A DNA stretch of 64,000 nt, taken from positions 128,001 through 192,000 of IMG/VR virus record IMGVR_UViG_3300028591_000074, one strand, 5' to 3'. Of this stretch, positions 2,941 through 49,971 are shown one piece after another. The notes beneath the pieces are model-generated. The model saw only the letters and a program-made list of their open reading frames with translations, ran no database searches and had not been told where the DNA came from. Made by a program: the position numbers and the translations under genes. Position 1 is the stretch's first letter; every line of letters starts with the position of its first letter. Source of the DNA: a virus. Its lineage: Duplodnaviria; Caudoviricetes.

Positions 2941-4341
2941 CTATATAATCTTTCCTACTACTCCATTCAAAATTTCTACAACAATGAAAATATTGACGTT
3001 TATTGTCACACCACTTAGATTCAGGATTTACACAATTCGAAGTCCATCCGAAACCGTAACCATCCCAGTATTGACAATTTGCGCAACGTCTATTTGATTT
3101 CTTTGTTTTATTTATTGGTCTATGGTTCATGTAATTTTCTCACTTTCGAATCACAGTTAAGACAATCCCAAGGTGGGTATTTTTTCTCATTCCTAAATAG
3201 GTAACTTGTCTATGACACACAGTACATTCAAACAAATATATGCAATCATTATATTCAATTGGAATCGGTGTCACTTTCTTCCACAGATTCATTTAATGCC
3301 TCCAACATCTCTACTACCTGTTCAAAGTATCTGCCAGTCGGTTTTACAGAATCTGGCGAAACTCTCAATAAAGAACCGCCAGTAGCATTTAGTAGCCACA
3401 ATGTATCACCACTGCCATCATTAGATCGTTTTGTTATAATGTATGGTTCGCCATAGTAAATTACTTCAGAGCCAACTTTAATCGAATCCTTTAATTCCTC
3501 ATATGCAGTTATTTTTGATACGACTTCATCATACGTATTATGTGTTATTATCCCAATACCTTTCGAAGTATTTAAATCCAAACATCCGAAACAACTTTCA
3601 CGTTCATTCGGTAACATATGGAATACTTTTCTTACCAATTCCCAAGCATCATTGATACCACGATGATATTGAATTTTACAATCACCTGTATATTCTGCGA
3701 AATTTTTATTCCATTTAAGTGCATCAGATCTACCATTTTCATATCCTGAATTATACATTAATTCAGAAATTTCATTTACTTTATCTTTAAGTTCAAAATA
3801 TCTCATCATTTACACCAAACCTTTCACAGAAATTATTACAATATCAATCTCTAAGTATTTTAACGATTTTTGGATTCAAAAAGTGCAGAACATCCTAGTC
3901 TGCACTTATGTTATTCGAAAATTCAGTTAGTTCTTCTACTAAATCAATATACAAGTCTATCAGATCAACTATGAAGTTAAAATTCTTCTCTTTCATCGGA
4001 TAGCCCTGCATATCCATTACATTTCCTCTATAAAAGAATAGTTCGTGCGGTTGTTCAAATAGACTCATTATCAATCCCCTTTATCATCCACATCTTGCAC
4101 CTAAGATATGTGTTTTAAAATGTATCGCTTAAACCAATTACATTCACCATCTGAGAACTCTACACGATATGCCCATGTATCTCCTGGATCAATTTCAACA
4201 ATCTCACCAATCTCACCAAGTCTACGTTTGCAATAATCATCATATTGATAATCTACAACTATCATAACTTTATCACCTATATGTAGTTCTTCGTATTCGT
4301 ACCCCTCAACATAAATATCCATTTCTTAATCCCCTCAGTTA

Positions 4342-4942: not shown

Positions 4943-5659
4943 TCATACAGCCGTTCCTTTCTGCCTTCCTCTGAATGATGTCTTAGTATCAAATCCATGC
5001 ATTTCAATCTTATCATCATTTGTTGCGCCGATAGGATCAATGCGTTCAGATTCTGTCTTAAGTAATGAAAAGTGTTCTTCAATGGCAGTAAATATTGAAA
5101 CAGGGTCGATAATGTCAGCGATACCACAAGCTGTCAAGATAGGAATTGTCCTGATCTCACTGATCCATTTATTCTTGCAAGACTTACTTACTTCGTAACC
5201 GTTCAAGTTTTGTGTGGTTGAAAGATTGTTTGACTGTATAGCTGCAATCATCCTAGGTACATTCGACTTGATGAACTCGTGATAAGTCTCGTTCTTTTTC
5301 TGCTGAATGAGCGTGCCATACATGAACGAAATTTCGGTCAGTTTGAGTACTTCTCGAGATTTACTGTAGTCCTTCCAGGTGGACAACAGTTCCATCTTGT
5401 AATCTGATGGTCTTCCATAGTTGTTATATTGTACATCGTACAATAGTATCAGCCAGAAAGTAGTACCGCACTGAAGTACCACATACTTATATCTGTATTT
5501 GTGCTTGTCTCGGGTGTAGATTGTACAGTATCCAGGTACAAGAACTTCACAAAGACGATCTTTCGTCAGAAGATACGATCCTCTTCGGTCAAATACAATG
5601 CTGTCCTCTGAATTCTGTAGATAATCATAGTAATCAGTATTCTTATCAATTATTCGCAT
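4943..5659 (-). CDS. Hypothetical phage protein
   Basis: 238 aa; MRIIDKNTDYYDY N-terminus and KIEMHGFDTKTSFR C-terminus. Confidence 0.6.
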   Translation of the reverse strand: MRIIDKNTDYYDYLQNSEDSIVFDRRGSYLLTKDRLCEVLVPGYCTIYTRDKHKYRYKYVVLQCGTTFWLILLYDVQYNNYGRPSDYKMELLSTWKDYSKSREVLKLTEISFMYGTLIQQKKNETYHEFIKSNVPRMIAAIQSNNLSTTQNLNGYEVSKSCKNKWISEIRTIPILTACGIADIIDPVSIFTAIEEHFSLLKTESERIDPIGATNDDKIEMHGFDTKTSFRGRQKGTAV

Positions 5660-8600
5660 AATCCTGTTCCCTCCTTTCCAAACACTTTATCTATGTACAC
5701 CATATCTATTAATCTGTAAACTAAATCTTTAATAGTTTCACACATACTACTAAACTTTTGTTCATCAATGATATAGTATAGTGTATTCCCGGCGTCACGA
5801 AGATCTTGAAGTGAATACAAAATATGTCTTGCCGTGTAACCATTAAGTTGTATATTTGATGCCTTACCGCCCTTTACCTGCTGTAACGGTTCATATAATC
5901 CGAACATGGATCGCTCAAAGGCGATCTGCCCCTCTGGATCGTCGATGACATCAGAATAAATTACATTTAATCTTATAGCATCATATACAATATCAGCTTC
6001 CGCTTTTGTTAATTCAAAATCAACTGTCTTCAATATGTTTACCTCGCATATCTGAATACTATTTTACCCAAAAGTAATTACTCCACCTGGATACATTTTG
6101 AAAAATCGACTTACATCTTCAAGTTGTTTTTCCGTGAGATCAAAATACTTTTTGCCCATTTTCTTACGCAGTTCATGGCGGTTGTGAATAACCCATGTAG
6201 GATAGTTCCCTACTCTAAAATTGTCATGGAATGGTTCTTGTATATCACAACAGAATACGTTACCATGCTGTAATCTAATTTCCCGATCAGCAAGATCCAC
6301 ATAAAATTTATCATCTATCTCGCATATAAAATCTGCATAAGTATACAATCCGGATTTTAACCATAGATCGGTATCGTTATCCACAGATTCCAAAAATCGT
6401 TTAATCTCAAATTCATCTAGAAACACAGGTTCTTCAAAAATAGATTCTTTTGCAGTCTGTCGAAGTTTCTCTCGTTCTTCTTTTGTTATAGGTCGTTGAA
6501 ACCATGTATGGCATCCCATAATTCACCTCATAAATTAAAATTAAATTTATTTACAATTTACAAAACTTTGATTTTCAAGCATTTTAAAGAAGTCAACCGC
6601 AGAACTTCTTGGTATTGTGATAGTAATCATATTATCCATAATTAGTCATTCTCATTTCCACATAAGGCATACGGACAATCTACACAGGCCGAAACAAGTT
6701 CACCTGTGTCCGGATCAACATAGTAATCATCCCCATATCCAGTACATTCGTAGCAATAATCATCATAATCCATAATGTAATTTTCCCCATTATCGCACAT
6801 CGCTATTACTCCTTCGGTAAACTGTCTAGTATGAATACAGGAGAACAGATACCTTCCTCCATATCTTTCTGCAACTTGGAATACTTATCCATCATGCGTC
6901 TGCGTAGAAGAATCTGCGATCTAGATGCACGAATCATCATTTCAACGGAATCATTATAAACACCTAAGGTGGCATGATCAAAAAACTCATACATCATATA
7001 CATCTCCAATTTAGAATCATCCATCTTCACCCTCCTTAAAAACATCAGATTCAATTATATCTAACAATGCTACAAGTGCATCGTGTGACATAGGTTCATT
7101 AGGCTTACAATAAGTGGAAATAAACCCATTCTCTGCATAAGTTAATGGTTTACCTTTGTATGTGGTTGCTCTGTAAGGATATTCCCTTGCGCACCACATG
7201 AGATAGAATTTGATGGAGTCATACAGTCCGGATTCTTCATCTGTCAGTTGTGCATTAGAATTGCTTATGAGCGAATTGATGAACTTAATGCATTGTTCTG
7301 GTGAGTTCATGTAACATATCCTCCCTATGAGATTTCTTTTATCATGTTATCCACAATATACCATCTATTTCGGATATACACTAAACTCTTGATATTTACC
7401 ATTTTCATAGAACTTAATGTAAACATCTGCATTTATACCGTCAATATCAAAATCACTCAGTTTCAAATCTTTACCATCTACACAATATCCAATTCCTATT
7501 TCTGCGAACACCGCAGTAAGTTTATCAAAATCAGTCATATTGTTATCACCACCCTATTTCACATATTATAATGATTCATCGGAAGATTTATCTTGTAGAA
7601 CTGAATCCTTATCTTCAAATTTATTGTAAATTTGCTCCCAGATAGATTTCTGAATCTCCTTCAAGTGATCATGCGATTCACTACTACCCATTCCATACAT
7701 CATCTGGACCACAGAATACATTGCGTGACAGATTGCTTCAGCAACTGTTTCAGTTATCTCCACACTGATAGATTTGAGACAGTCACAAAATTTAATCTCA
7801 TCGAGCATAGATATAAGTTTCCTAGCATCTCTGTATTTTATAAGCCTGTCATTGTAGCCCATCTTACCAAGTGATGACAAGAGTATCTGCAATGAGTCCC
7901 TTAGAAACCCTGACTGTATAACGTCCAATGTGATTGTGATAGTCTTTTCAGATTTCGCCATTAGGTTGTTCCTCACTTTCTGAGTTATTCATATACACAG
8001 TATCATCTGCATTCCTAGGTACAGTTACAACCATAGGCTTCCCATCTTCAGGATATATTGTAGTCGTGTATCTAACATCACCAATACCACTGACATGCAC
8101 ATGGTCATTACTTGTTATAGTTGCAGATTTTATCTTTATCCACTTTTCACCAGTCGATACATTATCTTTATCCGGAAGTTTATCTTTTACAGATACCCAA
8201 TCATCCTTTGTCATACTATTCCTCACCTATCTTCATAATTTCTTTACACAGATCGGATTTCAAAAACTCCCGATACTTCTGTAATCGTTCTTGCATGTAG
8301 GTTTCATCAGGATTGAAATCTTCTCCTATCTGAGATTCTATGTCCAATTTAAGATTCCCAGAATTAAGATCTGCCATGAAACCTTTCGCACCTTTAATTG
8401 CTTCCTCTGAGTTTATGATTCGCATAGTGTCACCTCAAGTTAAATCTACATAGTCAAATTCAGGCTTGTCATAAGGGTGGTTAGTATGTACCCAAGTTCT
8501 TTGTGTTATTTCAATTTCACTCTTACCACCAGAGTAGATATCTTCATAAACAGCTACAGGCATATCTAGTGGAAACTTCTGTAATTCTGTTATAAGTTCT

Positions 8601-20793: not shown

Positions 20794-21999
20794 TTATTCA
20801 CCTGCAACAGTCGATGCAAATACATAACCAACTGCCTTTCTACCATTTCCTGGAAGTGTATATTCGATTCTTCTAAATTCTACATTTGTATATGGATCTA
20901 TGTATCCACCATCAAATACTTTAACTGCGCCAATAATATCAGTAAGTGGGAACTTAATATTTGGTATGGAATAAACACGTGTAACTTTTGTAAGTGCAAT
21001 AGATGTAGAATCTTCTAAAGTTTCACTCGTTAATGCATCTTGTGCTGAGCTAAGGAAGATTGTAGGCGATGTCTGTTCAGGTTTTTCCGGTTTAGTTTCT
21101 ACTACAGGTTCTACTTCTTCAATCGATTCTTCTGTAGATTCTTCTACTGATTCATCAGTGGAATCTTCTACTGGTTCAGAAGCAAGTTCTTCCTCTGCAT
21201 CTTCAGTATCAGAAGTGATATCACTATCGGTATCAATAGGTTCAGGTACAACATCTGTATCGGAATCTACAATATCAACATCGGAATCATCATCAGATTT
21301 CGATTCAATTTCCGTAACAGTATAAACGCCATTTTCATCTTGTTCTGAAATTTCGTAAGTGTCGGTATCTACAGAATCATCTGGAATAGTACCCTTGAAT
21401 GATCCACCAGTTACTGTAACTATAGTTGCGGTATCATCTTCTTTCGAAATTGCTTTGGAGAATGAGTAGATTCCACCACCTTGAACTTCTACGATACCCT
21501 TCTTCGCTACATTTACACCGTGATAATCACCATAAGCTGAAATAGAACCGTCTATAAGAACTAACTTACTATTTGCTTTTGCATTTGTGTAACCTTCTAC
21601 AGATACAACTGCACCTTCACCGGAATCTGGATTCGTCCCAATTACTGCACCATCGATTGTAAGTGTAGATTTCTTTGTTACAGATGCAATTGTTCCAGAA
21701 CCACCTGCCTGTAAACCTTCACCAAATGTAACATGTGTATCTGCACCATCTAAAATGATAGATGGAGAAGCGTTGCAGATAATGTCACCACCGATAAATG
21801 TAATATTACCGGATGTAATGGTAAGTGGAGATTCAATTGTTAAGTTGTAGGAATCAAGATTGATTGTAAGATTATTATTTGTTGAAATATCAATAGATTC
21901 TGAGACTGTGATATTATCGGAAAATACAATACTATCACCATCATTAGAAGAAGCAATAGATTCAAGCAGTTCTTGAAGTGTGCTTACAGTAAGTATCAT
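20794..21999 (-). CDS. Highly acidic beta-helix-like protein
   Basis: Repetitive beta-strand/GG motifs and a long D/E-rich linker. Confidence 0.5.
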   Translation of the reverse strand: MILTVSTLQELLESIASSNDGDSIVFSDNITVSESIDISTNNNLTINLDSYNLTIESPLTITSGNITFIGGDIICNASPSIILDGADTHVTFGEGLQAGGSGTIASVTKKSTLTIDGAVIGTNPDSGEGAVVSVEGYTNAKANSKLVLIDGSISAYGDYHGVNVAKKGIVEVQGGGIYSFSKAISKEDDTATIVTVTGGSFKGTIPDDSVDTDTYEISEQDENGVYTVTEIESKSDDDSDVDIVDSDTDVVPEPIDTDSDITSDTEDAEEELASEPVEDSTDESVEESTEESIEEVEPVVETKPEKPEQTSPTIFLSSAQDALTSETLEDSTSIALTKVTRVYSIPNIKFPLTDIIGAVKVFDGGYIDPYTNVEFRRIEYTLPGNGRKAVGYVFASTVAGE

Positions 22000-22530: not shown

Positions 22531-22886
22531 GTTTGACACCTATGTAAGTTAGCATTTCATCAAAACTTCTACCATGTATCAAGCATTTTGACACCTATGT
22601 AAATTAACATGACACCAAAACGATATCGTGATTTCACCGCGTATCTGGCTTGTTTGATACCTATGTAATTTAACATGACATCAAAACAGTAGCAGTTACA
22701 TTCATGATACTTCCTCCAGTTTGATACCTATGTAATTTAACACTGTATCGAAACTAATAGCACGCTTTTGTTTCGATTCGCTTTGTTTGACACCTGTGTA
22801 ATTTAACATTGTATCGAAACTAATATCGGATTTGGAAGTCAGTTGGCAAGGTTTGATACCTATGTAATTTAACATGACATCAAACC
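22531..22886 (-). CRISPR. CRISPR array 1: six 36-nt repeats, spacers 19/30/31/30/30 nt
   Basis: Repeats at 22531, 22586, 22652, 22719, 22785 and 22851; plus-strand consensus GTTTGAYACCTATGTAATTTAACATGACATCAAAAC. Confidence 0.93.
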
Positions 22887-22997
22887 CCAAATCACACACG
22901 TATTCAGTTTTGATAGCATATTTACAAAGGTTTAGTGAGTGCTTTGTGGAAATCATTATAGATTTCCTACCTCACTATAAGGTTGTCAAATCAACCC
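22887..22997 (-). ncRNA. tracrRNA-like scaffold, copy 1
   Basis: Two hairpins plus anti-repeat ACCTTTGTAAATATGCTATCAAAAC; homologous to 23586-23697 and 23881-23961. Confidence 0.8.
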
Positions 22998-23043
22998 TTA
23001 TATATAAATATTTCAATTACATGTAACAACCGATCCTTCTGAT

Positions 23044-23585
23044 GTTTGACACCTATTGAATCCCATAGCTCAACAAAACTGTATTAACTGTCATGTTTTC
23101 TTCGCTTAGATTTGACACCTGTGTAATTCCGCAGTTCCTCAAAACTATAATGTATTACCCTTGAGTTTGACTATGTTTGATACCTATATAATTTTGCAGT
23201 CTGTCAAAACCGGTATCTCACCTAAGCCGTTTTCCACAGGTTTGATGCCTATGTAATCTCACAATCTAACAAAACCAAGATGTTCTTGTCGATGCCATCA
23301 AGGAAGTTTGACACCAATGTAATTTCGTAGTCCAACAAAACAGAAACTGATATATGAGAATCCCATGTATTAGTTTGACACCTGTGTAATTCCATAATCC
23401 ATCAAAACTTAGCGAATGTCTGTTCACTTTTGACACCTATGTAATCTCACAATCCAACAAAACAATGAATTGTGTTCTTTCATCTTGATTGTTGTTTGAC
23501 ACCAATGTAATTTCATAGTCTATCAAAATCTTCAGACAAATACCTAATAAGTTTGACACCTATACAATTTACAGTCCGACAAAAC
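23044..23585 (-). CRISPR. CRISPR array 2: nine degenerate 35-36-nt repeats, spacers 30/29/29/30/31/19/30/21 nt
   Basis: Repeats at 23044, 23110, 23175, 23240, 23306, 23373, 23428, 23494 and 23551; approximate consensus GTTTGACACCTRTGTAATYYCRYARTCYAWCAAAAC. Confidence 0.92.
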
Positions 23586-23697
23586 ATCAAATCACACATA
23601 TTCAGTTTTGACAGATCATATTTTACAAAGGCTTAGTGAGTGTGTTACGTGAATCATTTCAGATCACTACCTCACCATAAGGTCGTCAAATCGACCC
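23586..23697 (-). ncRNA. tracrRNA-like scaffold, copy 2
   Basis: Same two hairpins with compensatory changes; anti-repeat GCCTTTGTAAAATATGATCTGTCAAAAC. Confidence 0.8.
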
Positions 23698-23736
23698 CGT
23701 ATATTAAATTTTACGTTACGATTATATTTAGCATAA

Positions 23737-23812
23737 GTTTGATGTATTTGTAATTCCATACACCACCCGGGCCTGTAGTTTGATGTCCTTATAATTCCAT
23801 ACAGTTCAAATC
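23737..23812 (-). CRISPR. Two degenerate repeats (array 3 remnant)
   Basis: gtttgatgtatttgtaattccatac at 23737 and gtttgatgtccttataattccatac at 23778. Confidence 0.55.
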
Positions 23813-23838
23813 AAAAGTATAATCATCCAACCTTTTAT

Positions 23839-23961
23839 GTTTGACATCTATGCAATCACATATAGGATCGTTGATCCGTATGAAATTACAAAGGCTTGGT
23901 GAGTGTGTTACGGATAATTCTGAGACTATCCTACCTCACTTTACGGCTGTCAAATCAACCC
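23839..23961 (-). ncRNA. Fused scaffold+repeat (omegaRNA/sgRNA-like) overlapping the cas12f stop codon
   Basis: Scaffold copy 3 whose anti-repeat joins a repeat through GGATC-AAC-GATCC, ending ...AGATGTCAAAC. Confidence 0.75.
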
Positions 23962-25295
23962 ATTATTGTAATATTCTTTGCCTTGTTATAGGCATGACTG
24001 ATTGTTTTTCCACAATGAGGGCAAGTAAACGATACTTCCTGTGTCCATTCAAATACCTTCGGAATTACTTCTTCTGTACAGAATACTTCACCGCAAGAAC
24101 TGCATACATTCCGGACTGTCCGAAGAACATCTGTCTTTTTATCCTGCTTATCAGTCATCTTACTTGTTGTTACAACAATACCTTCACGTTCTGCCTTATA
24201 AGTAATGAACTGTACCAACTGGTAATAGGACCAATTCCGAAGAAGTACGGGGTAATCATCAAGATCTGACTTCGTTACATCTTCTACCACAATAGCGGAT
24301 ACCTTGTTATCTTTTGCAAACTCAACAACCATCTTACTAAGATTATGATTGTATGTCTGCACATAATTTTTCTCATAGGACTTATGTGTTTCAAGTTTTG
24401 CTAACTTCTTCCCACGACCATGCCCACCATTGGAATACTTCAAAGCTCTCTGAAGATTCTCAAAGTGGATCTGAATATCTTTTCGTTTTGCTACAAGATC
24501 ATTCTTTATTGATCCGCCAATCTCATGTTCATCATCATCTGTAGAAAGTGCGGCAACAAGACATTTATCATATCCAAGTGCAAGCCCCATAATCTTTCCA
24601 TGCTCTGGGATATATTCTTCTGCATCACGCTCAATCTTGACAGACAGATTAAATATAATCTTACCCTTGTTCGTAATCTGAATCGTGCTACCGCAGACTT
24701 TATAATGTTCCGGATCAGTTACAATAGATTCCAAAAGTGACGGAAGGAACTTGTCCGGACCCTTATTCTTACCTGCACCAAGATACAGTTTGAAATGGAT
24801 TCCGTTTACAAACTTAAAGAAGTAGGCATTTACGGTATTTTCCGTTCCATCATCCGTAGTGTAGGTATCATCCCCGGTATAAATAGTAATGAACCTGCTT
24901 GGAACCATAAGTGGGAAATCTCTTTTATAAAATGGTAGATTCCGTTCACCCTTTGCAAGACCATTCTTCAAAGCTGTGGAAAAGTCCTGTTTTACTTTCA
25001 TACCACAGTTCCCGGCCATACCCAAACCCTTCGCCTGTTTCATATCATGTATGGCAGTATTTGTATTACGGAATATCATCTTCATTTCTTCCTTGAAGTT
25101 AGGATCATTGAAGTTCTTATCATACTTATAGTATAAGCACCCAACCTGTGACATGTAAGTATTCAAGATACAATACTGATTATAAATCCCGTCACGAAGG
25201 TACTGATATACTCTATCTCGTTCTTCTTTATCACCTACCGGGAATAACTGAATCTTCTTTGTTGTGATTGTAGTTGTTTTCTTCTGCATACCCAC
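23955..25295 (-). CDS. cas12f: Cas12f/TnpB-family effector, predicted nuclease-dead (dCas12f)
   Basis: 446 aa; LRNWSYYQLVQFITYKAEREGI helix and CSSCG/CPHCG Zn finger typical of clostridial Cas12f. RuvC-I MGLALG (D>A), RuvC-II VVEDV intact, RuvC-III SHAYNKAKNI (D>A). Likely ATG start at 25289. Confidence 0.88.
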   Translation of the reverse strand: MGMQKKTTTITTKKIQLFPVGDKEERDRVYQYLRDGIYNQYCILNTYMSQVGCLYYKYDKNFNDPNFKEEMKMIFRNTNTAIHDMKQAKGLGMAGNCGMKVKQDFSTALKNGLAKGERNLPFYKRDFPLMVPSRFITIYTGDDTYTTDDGTENTVNAYFFKFVNGIHFKLYLGAGKNKGPDKFLPSLLESIVTDPEHYKVCGSTIQITNKGKIIFNLSVKIERDAEEYIPEHGKIMGLALGYDKCLVAALSTDDDEHEIGGSIKNDLVAKRKDIQIHFENLQRALKYSNGGHGRGKKLAKLETHKSYEKNYVQTYNHNLSKMVVEFAKDNKVSAIVVEDVTKSDLDDYPVLLRNWSYYQLVQFITYKAEREGIVVTTSKMTDKQDKKTDVLRTVRNVCSSCGEVFCTEEVIPKVFEWTQEVSFTCPHCGKTISHAYNKAKNITIMG

Positions 25296-25381: not shown

Positions 25382-26233
25382 CTAAAAATTAGTTATCAAC
25401 ACTTCATCCAATCCAATATTTTCTGAACCCTCTGAACGATACCGCCAATGATTACTATAATTACCTAACTGAATCACATTGTACTTACTGCTCCAGTTAA
25501 TTAGCAAATCATTTGACTTTTCACCATGTTTTAATACATTAGACAATGCAAACTTGACATTTTTCTGATTTAAAGTATCAAGTATATTTAATAAATCAAT
25601 ATCATCCTGTTCCAACCAACCACCAAATCCACGTTTACCATCACTGTAAGATCCTAAAGTGATACTATATGGTGGGTCACAATATACAAGTGAATCAGAA
25701 GTTAAATCTGTAAAATCAAATTCCCTGAAATCTAAACTTGTTAATACATACTTCTTTTCCTTCAGAAGTTTTGAAAAGTCCATAAGATTTTTCGCAGCGG
25801 TTGACGTAAAACATTTTTTTCCAAAGGAGGTATTAAATTCCATAGAATTATTGAACCGGAGTACATTGTTAAATGCGTAGAATGATAAGACTAATAGTAG
25901 CATAGGTTCTTTTGTCTTATTATATTCATCGCGTAATTCCATATATCCATCAGCATTTGCTTTACTTAATTTGAATCGATCAATCGTAGAATTGATATCT
26001 TCAAATATTGTAGATGTTGGTGTAGTCATAATATAATTATAGACTTCAATGAGATATGTGATTCTATCATTTGCATAAATGATGTCAGCATCTACATTTA
26101 CTGCAACATTCATACCACCTGTAAATAAATCAACGAACTTATCAATATGTTTTGGAAAAACCGGAATAATCTTTCCAAGTATTTCAAACTTACTACCCAT
26201 ATAGTTTAATGGGGATTTTACAAAATCTAGCAT
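25382..26233 (-). CDS. dam: DNA adenine methyltransferase (D12/Dam class)
   Basis: SPLNYMGSK, DLFTGG SAM motif, RFN...FN, YCDPPY, EVLITN. Confidence 0.9.
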   Translation of the reverse strand: MLDFVKSPLNYMGSKFEILGKIIPVFPKHIDKFVDLFTGGMNVAVNVDADIIYANDRITYLIEVYNYIMTTPTSTIFEDINSTIDRFKLSKANADGYMELRDEYNKTKEPMLLLVLSFYAFNNVLRFNNSMEFNTSFGKKCFTSTAAKNLMDFSKLLKEKKYVLTSLDFREFDFTDLTSDSLVYCDPPYSITLGSYSDGKRGFGGWLEQDDIDLLNILDTLNQKNVKFALSNVLKHGEKSNDLLINWSSKYNVIQLGNYSNHWRYRSEGSENIGLDEVLITNF

Positions 26234-49765: not shown

Positions 49766-49971
49766 AAACTTTGAACCCCCTTCTGCATAGTTTTCCCTAT
49801 AAGATTATAAAAGGTTTGGTTAAGCAAAATAGAAAGTAGATACAATGTCAGAAATATTTCTTCACTGTATCCACTTTCTATGTGTTGTTATTTAATTATT
49901 TTTTCTCACTATAGTGTTTGTGTTATGGTAGTTTTGTGTTACTTTTATCTTATGTTTACGATTATTGTTGG

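Follow-up and report, generated by a model that had tools for sequence, protein, structure and literature searches.

The subject of this study is a locus on the minus strand of a window of 64,000 nucleotides (nt), which comprises bases 128001-192000 of the IMG/VR virus record IMGVR_UViG_3300028591_000074, a record of 253,527 bases that is complete according to CheckV. It represents a jumbo phage of the rumen, and the relatives of this phage come from rumen and bovine metagenomes. At the locus, one gene for a compact Cas12f-like protein, referred to here as the effector, is accompanied by three guide-RNA cassettes, each of which, by comparison, consists of a scaffold (stem P1, a two-tier stem P2 and an anti-repeat) followed by a mini-array of CRISPR-like repeats. 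The effector gene and all scaffolds and arrays lie on the minus strand, in the order effector gene, scaffold 3 with cassette 3, scaffold 2 with array 2, and scaffold 1 with array 1. The features are listed below in this order, with the scores of a covariance model of the scaffold where they apply.

23955..25295, minus strand: gene of the Cas12f-like effector, RuvC site predicted to be inactivated (Pfam, phmmer, Foldseek, RuvC alignments)
23839..23962, minus strand: cassette 3, gene-proximal; scaffold core 23887-23962 (89.7 bits, E 1.8e-18)
23814..23838, minus strand: guide of cassette 3, starting with ATAAAAGGTTGG..., directly after the repeat-like end
23737..23813, minus strand: two degenerate or truncated cassette 3 repeats (23778-23813 and 23737-23772) with a 5-nt gap between them
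23587..23698, minus strand: scaffold of cassette 2; core 23624-23698 (83.9 bits, E 4e-17; minimum free energy fold)
23044..23586, minus strand: array 2; nine repeats of 36 nt with eight spacers between them, 19-31 nt long
22887..22998, minus strand: scaffold of cassette 1; core 22923-22998 (86.7 bits, E 8.7e-18; fold z-score -4.9)
22531..22886, minus strand: array 1; six repeats of 36 nt separated by five spacers, four of them 30-31 nt and one 19 nt long

The anti-repeat of cassette 2 ends at about 23605 (...GATCTGTCAAAAC) and is followed by a linker (23587-23604); that of cassette 1 ends at about 22907 (...ATGCTATCAAAAC), with its linker at 22887-22906. In array 2 the 5' half of the repeats is variable and the 3' half conserved (ATTACAYAGGTRTCAAAC). 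A CRISPR array beside the gene, which is a trait of Cas12f, is present in the form of 6 + 9 repeats with 30-nt spacers plus 3 degenerate repeats. The Rfam search of the region 21-26 kb returned no family, and no Cas1 or Cas2 was found in the 253-kb genome.

The effector and its guide-RNA scaffolds

The effector gene is the only Cas12f-like gene in the genome. Its frame opens with a GTG at 25295 (446 amino acids, aa), the likely start being an ATG at 25289, 9 nt after AGGAG (444 aa), and its TGA stop (23957-23955) lies inside hairpin 1 of scaffold 3. Among Pfam families only the TNB zinc ribbon was recognised (Cas12f1-like_TNB, PF07282, 1.3e-7). The phmmer search against PDB sequences returned RhCas12f (9NZP, deposited under the TnpB name; 2.7e-49), CnCas12f1 (8HR5; 1e-40) and 9N9C (2.4e-16). 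The AlphaFold2 model reached a predicted local distance difference test score of 83, and its top Foldseek matches were all Cas12f with a probability of 1.00, CnCas12f1 and AsCas12f being the first; TnpB, TranC, Cas12k, Cas12m and Cas12p ranked below Cas12f. Judged by its sequence and predicted fold, the effector is assigned to Cas12f. Three other assignments were considered and rejected: Cas12p (“Cas12 hacker”, 500-700 aa) by size and fold rank; TranC, since the nearest proteins are characterised Cas12f and LaTranC (9JFQ) appears only at rank 31; and an IS200/IS605 TnpB transposon, since the gene is single-copy with an inactivated RuvC and the only Y1 TnpA lies about 62 kb away. This Y1 (IS200/IS605) TnpA gene is found outside the window, at G000:C1:214137-214499 (-), with an E-value of 5.7e-37.

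In the HMMER alignment, RuvC-I reads GLALG against GVDLG and RuvC-III reads SHAYNKAKNI against NADYNAARNI, which places Ala239 and Ala435 where Asp is expected, so that the catalytic RuvC D-E-D triad of Cas12f is broken, and this clade-wide. Glu338 of RuvC-II and the zinc-ribbon cysteines are kept, and the protein is full length. The loss of both Asp is shared by 19 of the 20 sequences aligned, with identities as low as 41%; the one that differs, a protein named “IS605 OrfB” (39% identity), has the canonical triad, which phage relatives from IMG/VR at 34-39% identity keep as well. A phylogenetic tree of 235 homologues, 133 of which keep D-E-D, places 70 of the 76 proteins without Asp at RuvC-I and RuvC-III in one clade of 71 members with a support of 0.98. 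In this tree the group, referred to here as the dead clade, is monophyletic: 70/71 members are without both Asp and no D-E-D protein is found inside. The members that could be traced to long contigs are phage or phage-like. For an effector without the two RuvC Asp, the expected output is binding rather than cleavage, and a single ancient inactivation, after which protein, scaffold and arrays were conserved for long, points to a binding-only function. For the known diversity of Cas12f, the tree adds a large, apparently nuclease-dead clade (about 70 cluster representatives) that has kept the full-length architecture and CRISPR-like arrays. Moreover, R117, one of the two arginines with which RhCas12f contacts the protospacer-adjacent motif (PAM), is Pro in the phage effector, so its PAM is probably a different one.

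The three paralogous minus-strand scaffolds reported by the first-pass annotation proved to be real: the covariance model finds exactly three matches in the window (E about 1e-17 to 1e-18), and a pattern scan of the whole 253-kb genome found no further scaffolds or arrays. Hairpin 1 (P1) reads, exactly as annotated, GGTTG-ATTTGA-CAACC, GGTCG-ATTTGA-CGACC and GGTTG-ATTTGA-CAGCC in the three copies, and hairpin 2 (P2) likewise combines an outer GTGAG/CTCAC stem with inner stems that differ in sequence yet pair. All copies have the same P1 loop, outer P2 stem and proximal anti-repeat. Covariation in a larger alignment had been set beforehand as a test of these structures. The window and ten related loci with effectors of 44-98% identity yielded 25 scaffold copies, which were aligned and scored against a single explicit structure (P1 of 5 base pairs, outer P2 of 7 base pairs including a bulged A, inner P2 of 5 base pairs). 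Pairing was found in 94.5% of the base-pair cells as opposed to 82.7% in shuffles and 32-45% in slid-partner controls, and both sides had changed in 11/17 pairs. None of 500 shuffles equalled the real alignment on any of five measures, a count that is not to be read as a probability because the aligned sequences are related. Nevertheless, the comparative case for the scaffold structure is convincing, given the slid controls and the fact that whole stems are replaced in inner P2. The model also recovers a copy in locus L063 on which it had not been trained and, with weaker scores, homologous scaffolds in loci that are more distantly related. By eye, most scaffolds have an AT-rich ATATA(T/C) or ACATA(T/C) box immediately on their 5' side, for which no promoter function is claimed.

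Minimum free energy folds give P1, P2 and a long imperfect anti-repeat/repeat stem in all three cassettes. The conserved CCUUUGUAA together with the variable anti-repeat pairs with approximately the first 27 nt of the first repeat, and the last 7 nt of the repeat are left unpaired. The free repeat end UCAAA is complementary to the P1 loop UUUGA, which had been pointed out as a pseudoknot-like contact. As both sides (TTTGA/TCAAA) are invariant in the window, the window alone cannot test the pseudoknot, and the evidence comes from relatives. Three dead-clade loci (L062, L064 and L005) combine a TTTGG loop with a repeat end CCAAA, and nuclease-active relatives have TTTTG/CAAAA, TTTTA/TAAAA, ATTTTG/CAAAAT, TTCAG/CTGAA and CCTTT/AAAGG, which amounts to six or more complementary variants over cassettes and loci. 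In the two loci examined in detail, L012 and L034, the array right after each scaffold has the repeat end that matches the loop of that scaffold. These covarying letters support the pseudoknot. Pairing of the anti-repeat with the repeat, plus a second short contact of the repeat with the trans-activating CRISPR RNA (tracrRNA) beside the guide, is a trait of Cas12f, and computed folds, duplex energies and covariation all indicate it here.

Proposed system and the matching of cassettes to arrays

We interpret the locus, with a probability of about 0.7, as a phage-borne system for RNA-guided DNA binding that derives from type V-F Cas12f and in which one compact effector would use three downstream guide-RNA cassettes encoded on the same strand. 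In the proposed mechanism, the anti-repeat would pair with about the first 27 nt of the repeat and the last 5-6 nt of the repeat would form the pseudoknot with the P1 loop, leaving the guide at the 3' end as in the guide RNAs of Cas12f and TnpB. The first repeat, being covalently joined to the scaffold, would provide at least one natural single guide per transcript, and a scaffold supplied in trans would be required for the later repeats. Bound to matching DNA, the complex would block transcription or replication without cutting. A binding-only reading is supported by the type V precedents Cas12m (PMC11013384), TldR (PMC13622181) and the inactivated dCas12f (PMC13472631). Rival mobile elements or host genes are the probable targets, as the genome of the phage itself contains no match to the 30-nt spacers; the biological role may be the silencing of rivals, the control of the host or self-regulation. 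Three cassettes are compatible both with the supply of scaffold for many guides and with independent evolution or expression of guide sets.

Several observations weigh against this interpretation. The loss of cleavage is deduced from the sequence, Glu338 and the neighbouring acidic residues Asp243 and Asp339 remain, and TnpB relatives with a rearranged RuvC site have been described (PMC10691335). The repeats, unusually heterogeneous within each array, are only about 60-90% alike in arrays 1 and 2, and those of cassette 3 are truncated, which could indicate partial decay. A scan for sigma-70-type promoters was not above background (17 found as opposed to 14.5 expected in shuffles). Finally, no protospacer was found in any collection searched (own genome, INPHARED, IMG/VR, GTDB, JGI metagenomes), and hence no PAM, target-adjacent motif (TAM) or class of targets either.

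The first-pass annotation further claimed that each anti-repeat tracks its adjacent array and that the duplicated cassettes have co-diverged. It is conceivable instead, although we consider it clearly less probable than the interpretation given above, that the three copies are redundant and simply supply scaffold RNA for about 15 guides, with no specialisation between cassette and array. Such redundancy would fit the shared P1 loop, outer P2 stem and proximal anti-repeat; in the window only the distal anti-repeat varies and the pseudoknot and the proximal anti-repeat duplex are common to the three cassettes. It would also fit the pseudoknot letters of the dead-clade loci, which are the same between the cassettes of a locus. 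The pairing data are divided. Over the distal 13 nt, every one of the six array-1 repeats has more Watson-Crick partners in anti-repeat 1 than in anti-repeat 2 (means of 10 and 7.2), which speaks against redundancy; by the energy of a duplex that takes in more of the anti-repeat, cassettes 1 and 2 come out equal on array 1. The repeats of array 2 form 8.4 Watson-Crick pairs with anti-repeat 2 versus 8.9 with anti-repeat 1, and anti-repeat 2 is ahead only if G-U pairs are counted (11 versus 9.6). Cassette 3 is clearly specific for its own short repeat class, with -17 to -18 kcal/mol for its own anti-repeat versus -6 to -13 kcal/mol for the other two. Thus, the tracking of arrays stands for cassette 3, by Watson-Crick pairs also for cassette 1, and for cassette 2 only by way of G-U wobble; the duplex energies separate cassette 3 but not cassettes 1 and 2 on array 1. 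The motif TCTRTCAAAA given for array 2 fits just two of its nine repeats.

Cassettes that have diverged into pairing-specific sets are found outside the window, in the nuclease-active relative L012, where the energy matrices for anti-repeat and repeat and for loop and repeat end are both strongest on the diagonal, a result that speaks against redundancy. In L034, its own array is best in each row with small margins only, and the loop/repeat-end matrix is only partly diagonal. Considering the diagonal of L012, the small margins of L034 and the partial matching in the window, co-divergence of scaffold and array appears to be a family property that is weakly expressed in the window and strongest in L012. 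The duplication of cassettes together with their arrays is confirmed, and the co-divergence proposed for them is strong in L012 and modest in the window. That one effector serves several guide sets agrees with the single Cas12f-like gene of this genome and of each related locus. As a whole, the observation behind the earlier claims is largely confirmed and their interpretation partly supported.

Cassettes 1 and 2 join their scaffold to the first repeat via a linker of 18-20 nt, so that the predicted primary transcript is itself a natural single guide. In cassette 3, the core is fused via a closed hairpin (GGATC-AAC-GATCC) to a repeat-like 3' end (...GATGTCAAAC), and the minimum free energy fold shows a contiguous anti-repeat/repeat stem together with P1 and P2; read from its sequence, cassette 3 is a natural single-guide or omegaRNA-like form. 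The term tracrRNA may therefore be too narrow for these guide-RNA scaffolds of tracrRNA/omegaRNA type. Fused and split guide forms occur side by side in related loci too. The anti-repeat and the first repeat are separated by a linker (TGAATAYGTGTGATTTGRK; 22887-22906 and 23587-23604, minus strand) whose last letters form a TTTGAG(G)-like motif. In most of the loci examined (L010-L066), among them nuclease-active relatives whose proteins are about 35% identical, this motif stands before the first repeat and is absent before later ones; it may serve for processing or form a conserved apical loop. Another shared detail of arrays 1 and 2 is a repeat that ends in CAAAA instead of CAAAC and is followed by a short 19-nt spacer (22586-22621 and 23428-23463, minus strand), which suggests a shared duplication history or a deletion-prone junction.

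These forms raise the question whether the cassettes are self-contained omegaRNA-like single guides, i.e., an “omegaRNA array” in which only the first guide of each cassette is put to use, the units downstream of it being seldom used or left over from duplication. The joining of every scaffold to its first repeat, the closed hairpin of cassette 3 and the heterogeneous repeats of arrays 1 and 2 would agree with this, as would the duplication of whole omegaRNAs known for sigma-associated inactivated TnpB/Cas12f (PMC10691335) and the several full-length guide RNAs (gRNAs) per dCas12f locus (PMC13472631). We nevertheless hold it to be rather unlikely, as the 3' half ATTACAYAGGTRTCAAAC is kept in 15/15 repeats of arrays 1 and 2 and pairs with the conserved scaffold segment CCTTTGTAA and the P1 loop, the arrays of the relatives L062 and L063 have identical repeats, and spacers turn over between close relatives. 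Arrays differ between phages whose effectors are 97-98% identical: three spacers of array 2 are shared, with point changes, by L002 and L003, one of them also by L004, and L002 and L003 carry extra scaffold-proximal spacers.

The arrangement of the locus is not confined to one phage. Related loci have one Cas12f-like gene and two to four scaffolds, sometimes flanking the gene on both sides, and judging from these sequences two to four scaffold-plus-array cassettes per effector are a family trait that includes the nuclease-active phage relatives, i.e., a conserved design of the phage Cas12f family. In L062, scaffolds lie upstream and downstream of the effector (3495-3570 and 5321-5396), and a truncated third (7736-7796) lies past a gene for a UvrD-type helicase. 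Such helicases are also found near the effector in L006 and in the P0059 locus and are probably part of the phage replication module. In the literature covered, a phrase search for natural multiple or paralogous tracrRNAs found no description of natural type V loci with several scaffold-plus-array cassettes per effector. The covarying pseudoknot and the cassette-specific pairing in the relative suggest that one small protein accepts several scaffold/repeat pairs, which could be useful for multiplexed tools of the CRISPR interference type. Furthermore, a single locus with both fused (omegaRNA-like) and split (tracrRNA plus CRISPR RNA, crRNA) guides bears on the question of how type V arrays could arise from omegaRNAs without Cas1-Cas2.

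Spacer targets and alternative functions

Searches with blastn-short of the spacers against the phage's own 253-kb genome gave chance-level matches only, and the arrays had no match among the INPHARED phages. Scans with exact seeds of 20-22 nt covered five spacers: IMG/VR was scanned with all five, the GTDB genomes with four and the JGI metagenomes with one. Nothing was retrieved except the same arrays, in sister phages, and chance matches of 22 nt that end where the pattern ends (Devosia and others; 21-25/30 identical). A 19/21 match of the distal part of an array-2 spacer about 380 nt upstream of the TnpA gene (E 0.06) was discarded, as it is without a seed and expected by chance over 18 queries. 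Spacer 3 of array 1 (22689-22719, minus strand) resembles a translation start region (GGAGG, 7 nt, ATG...) and has no match in IMG/VR or GTDB; if its protospacer were the start of a gene, silencing at the 5' end would fit.

Two shorter matches lead back to the phage genome. The guide of cassette 3 starts with ATAAAAGGTT. These letters are the core of a motif that resembles a promoter and reads AACCTTTTATAtTAT on the gene strand. The first 10 nt of the guide occur in 7 genome copies (9 as a 9-mer), all on one strand, and all such sites lie 30-55 nt upstream of the starts of minus-strand open reading frames (ORFs), within a longer shared motif. In minus-strand reading, this motif, AACCTTTTATA(T/C/A)T, is found at window positions 49807 and 60130 (+) and at G000 positions 25571, 36213, 77003, 103944, 107089, 119497 and 206436; it may represent a late-promoter class of the phage, because the ORF at 107089 is a holin. 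The second match concerns an array-2 spacer that starts with TAATACATGG; these letters overlap with a TATAAT box situated about 40 nt upstream of where the effector gene starts. It is one of 18 genome-wide 10-nt seed matches, with about 0.007 expected in that 100-nt stretch. In L002, the corresponding place is matched over 8 nt by another spacer, with the register shifted by one base.

From these matches it could be argued that the system serves the self-regulation of the phage, with guide 3 binding a promoter class (core AACCTTTTAT) and the array-2 spacer binding the -10 box of the effector via 10-nt seeds, in the manner of TldR or long-form tracrRNAs. The position of the seven one-strand copies upstream of minus-strand genes, one of them a holin, and the rarity of the TATAAT match, with its counterpart in L002, speak for this function. 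TldR proteins have a single adjacent gRNA directed at the promoter of a host gene or of a neighbouring one; cassette 3 resembles a single gRNA, and its 10-nt seed matches a promoter-like motif, with weak statistics and no replication in a relative. However, about 0.9% of composition-matched 10-mers reach 7 or more copies in the genome, which gives a family-wise chance of about 12% over 14 spacers, and the sister phage G001 has the promoter motif and no spacer that matches it, so the lead was not replicated there. No single TAM fits the sites, since the flanking letters differ (ADT, GTTA, CGTT), and these readings were made after seeing the data. Self-regulation is therefore regarded as improbable. 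Equally speculative is a broader scheme in which the dead Cas12f would be a multiplexed regulator of the phage programme, with guide 3 acting on the AACCTTTTAT promoters, including that of the holin, one spacer acting on the -10 box of its own gene and the 30-nt spacers silencing rivals, and in which the family would have evolved several own-partner scaffold/repeat pairs that share one protein.

The least credible alternative is that the effector is still a nuclease with a non-canonical active site, engaged in ordinary phage Cas12f interference: its full length, its intact zinc ribbon, the conserved Glu338 and the position of Asp243 (GYD) and Asp339 near the lost residues would allow it, but several clade members have Asn or Ser for Asp243 and Asn, Ser, Glu or Tyr for Asp339, the RuvC-III Asp is never replaced by an acidic residue among the 19 aligned clade members in which both Asp are replaced, and the nearest active relatives retain the D-E-D triad.

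Related systems and neighbouring genes

Nuclease-dead Cas12f, TldR and duplicated omegaRNAs are already known, and a phage dead Cas12f with modular scaffold-plus-array cassettes is a variant of these themes. The closest relatives are the type V-F Cas12f proteins such as RhCas12f (9NZP) and CnCas12f1 (8HR5), whose gRNA architecture has been described (PMC13186708); in type V-F systems, two copies of the protein form an asymmetric homodimer on a single guide RNA. They share with the phage system a compact protein of about 420-500 aa with WED, REC, RuvC and zinc ribbon, a multi-stem tracrRNA with anti-repeat, 36-nt repeats with complementary ends, a guide 3' of the repeat and an array downstream of the gene without an adaptation module. 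The phage system differs in that both RuvC Asp are replaced, that three scaffolds each stand in cis with their own array and that its host is a jumbo phage.

Inactivated dCas12f proteins associated with sigma-E, and a “distinct cluster” of dCas12f beside CRISPR arrays, have been described by Hoffmann et al. (Nature 2026, PMC13472631; PDB 9N9C). Like the phage system, they combine an inactivated RuvC with RNA-guided DNA binding (proposed or shown) and several gRNAs per locus, and mixed loci with full-length gRNAs and CRISPR repeats also occur. However, those proteins are C-terminally truncated, come from Bacteroidota, are mostly without arrays and are paired with rpoE or HTH (helix-turn-helix) genes, whereas the phage protein is full length with point substitutions, matches 9N9C with only 2.4e-16 and shows neither the truncation nor the rpoE or HTH pairing. 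A Pfam search of the ten ORFs neighbouring the effector found no sigma-factor family at the threshold used.

TldR proteins are nuclease-dead, TnpB-like repressors with single guides (Wiegand et al. 2024; PMC13622181). Alike are the dead TnpB-family protein and the adjacent scaffold and guide, and some TldR are phage-encoded; they block RNA polymerase for repression, and short guides suffice. They differ from the phage system in having a single gRNA but no CRISPR array, in their place on other TnpB branches and in their linkage to fliC, csrA or oppF. Binding-only type V immunity is represented by Cas12m and Cas12c (PMC11013384), which likewise interfere by binding without DNA cleavage and use arrays of ordinary spacers; in contrast to the phage system, they are larger, belong to unrelated Cas12 branches and process their own crRNA without a tracrRNA.

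TranC proteins lie nearer to IS605/IS607 TnpB than to the established Cas12 subtypes and use reRNA-type as well as CRISPR-type guides. At the RNA level, the phage system would work like an intermediate of the TranC type, because fused and split guides coexist. OmegaRNA arrays and de novo arrays arising from omegaRNA duplication were described by Altae-Tran et al. (2023, PMC10691335), and TranC intermediates by Jin et al. (Cell 2025), here as summarised in PMC13565253 and 10.64898/2026.03.27.714800. As far as these accounts go, the duplication of whole scaffolds and the coexistence of fused and split guide forms are shared, whereas in the phage locus the fused and split forms are adjacent, each scaffold heads a CRISPR-like array and the protein groups with Cas12f.

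A 401-aa ORF and a 143-aa ORF downstream were considered as conserved partner genes and rejected, as neither has a conserved counterpart in the distant locus L006. The gene immediately upstream of that of the effector, at 25382-26233 (-) of the window, encodes a D12-class N6-adenine DNA methyltransferase (1.2e-32) and was not seen at the same position in more distant loci. The 401-aa ORF (20794-21999, minus strand) has no Pfam or PHROG family; it contains a long acidic middle region rich in Asp, Glu, Ser and Thr and is conserved only in the sister phage L004, where the ORF at the same position shows 40% identity.

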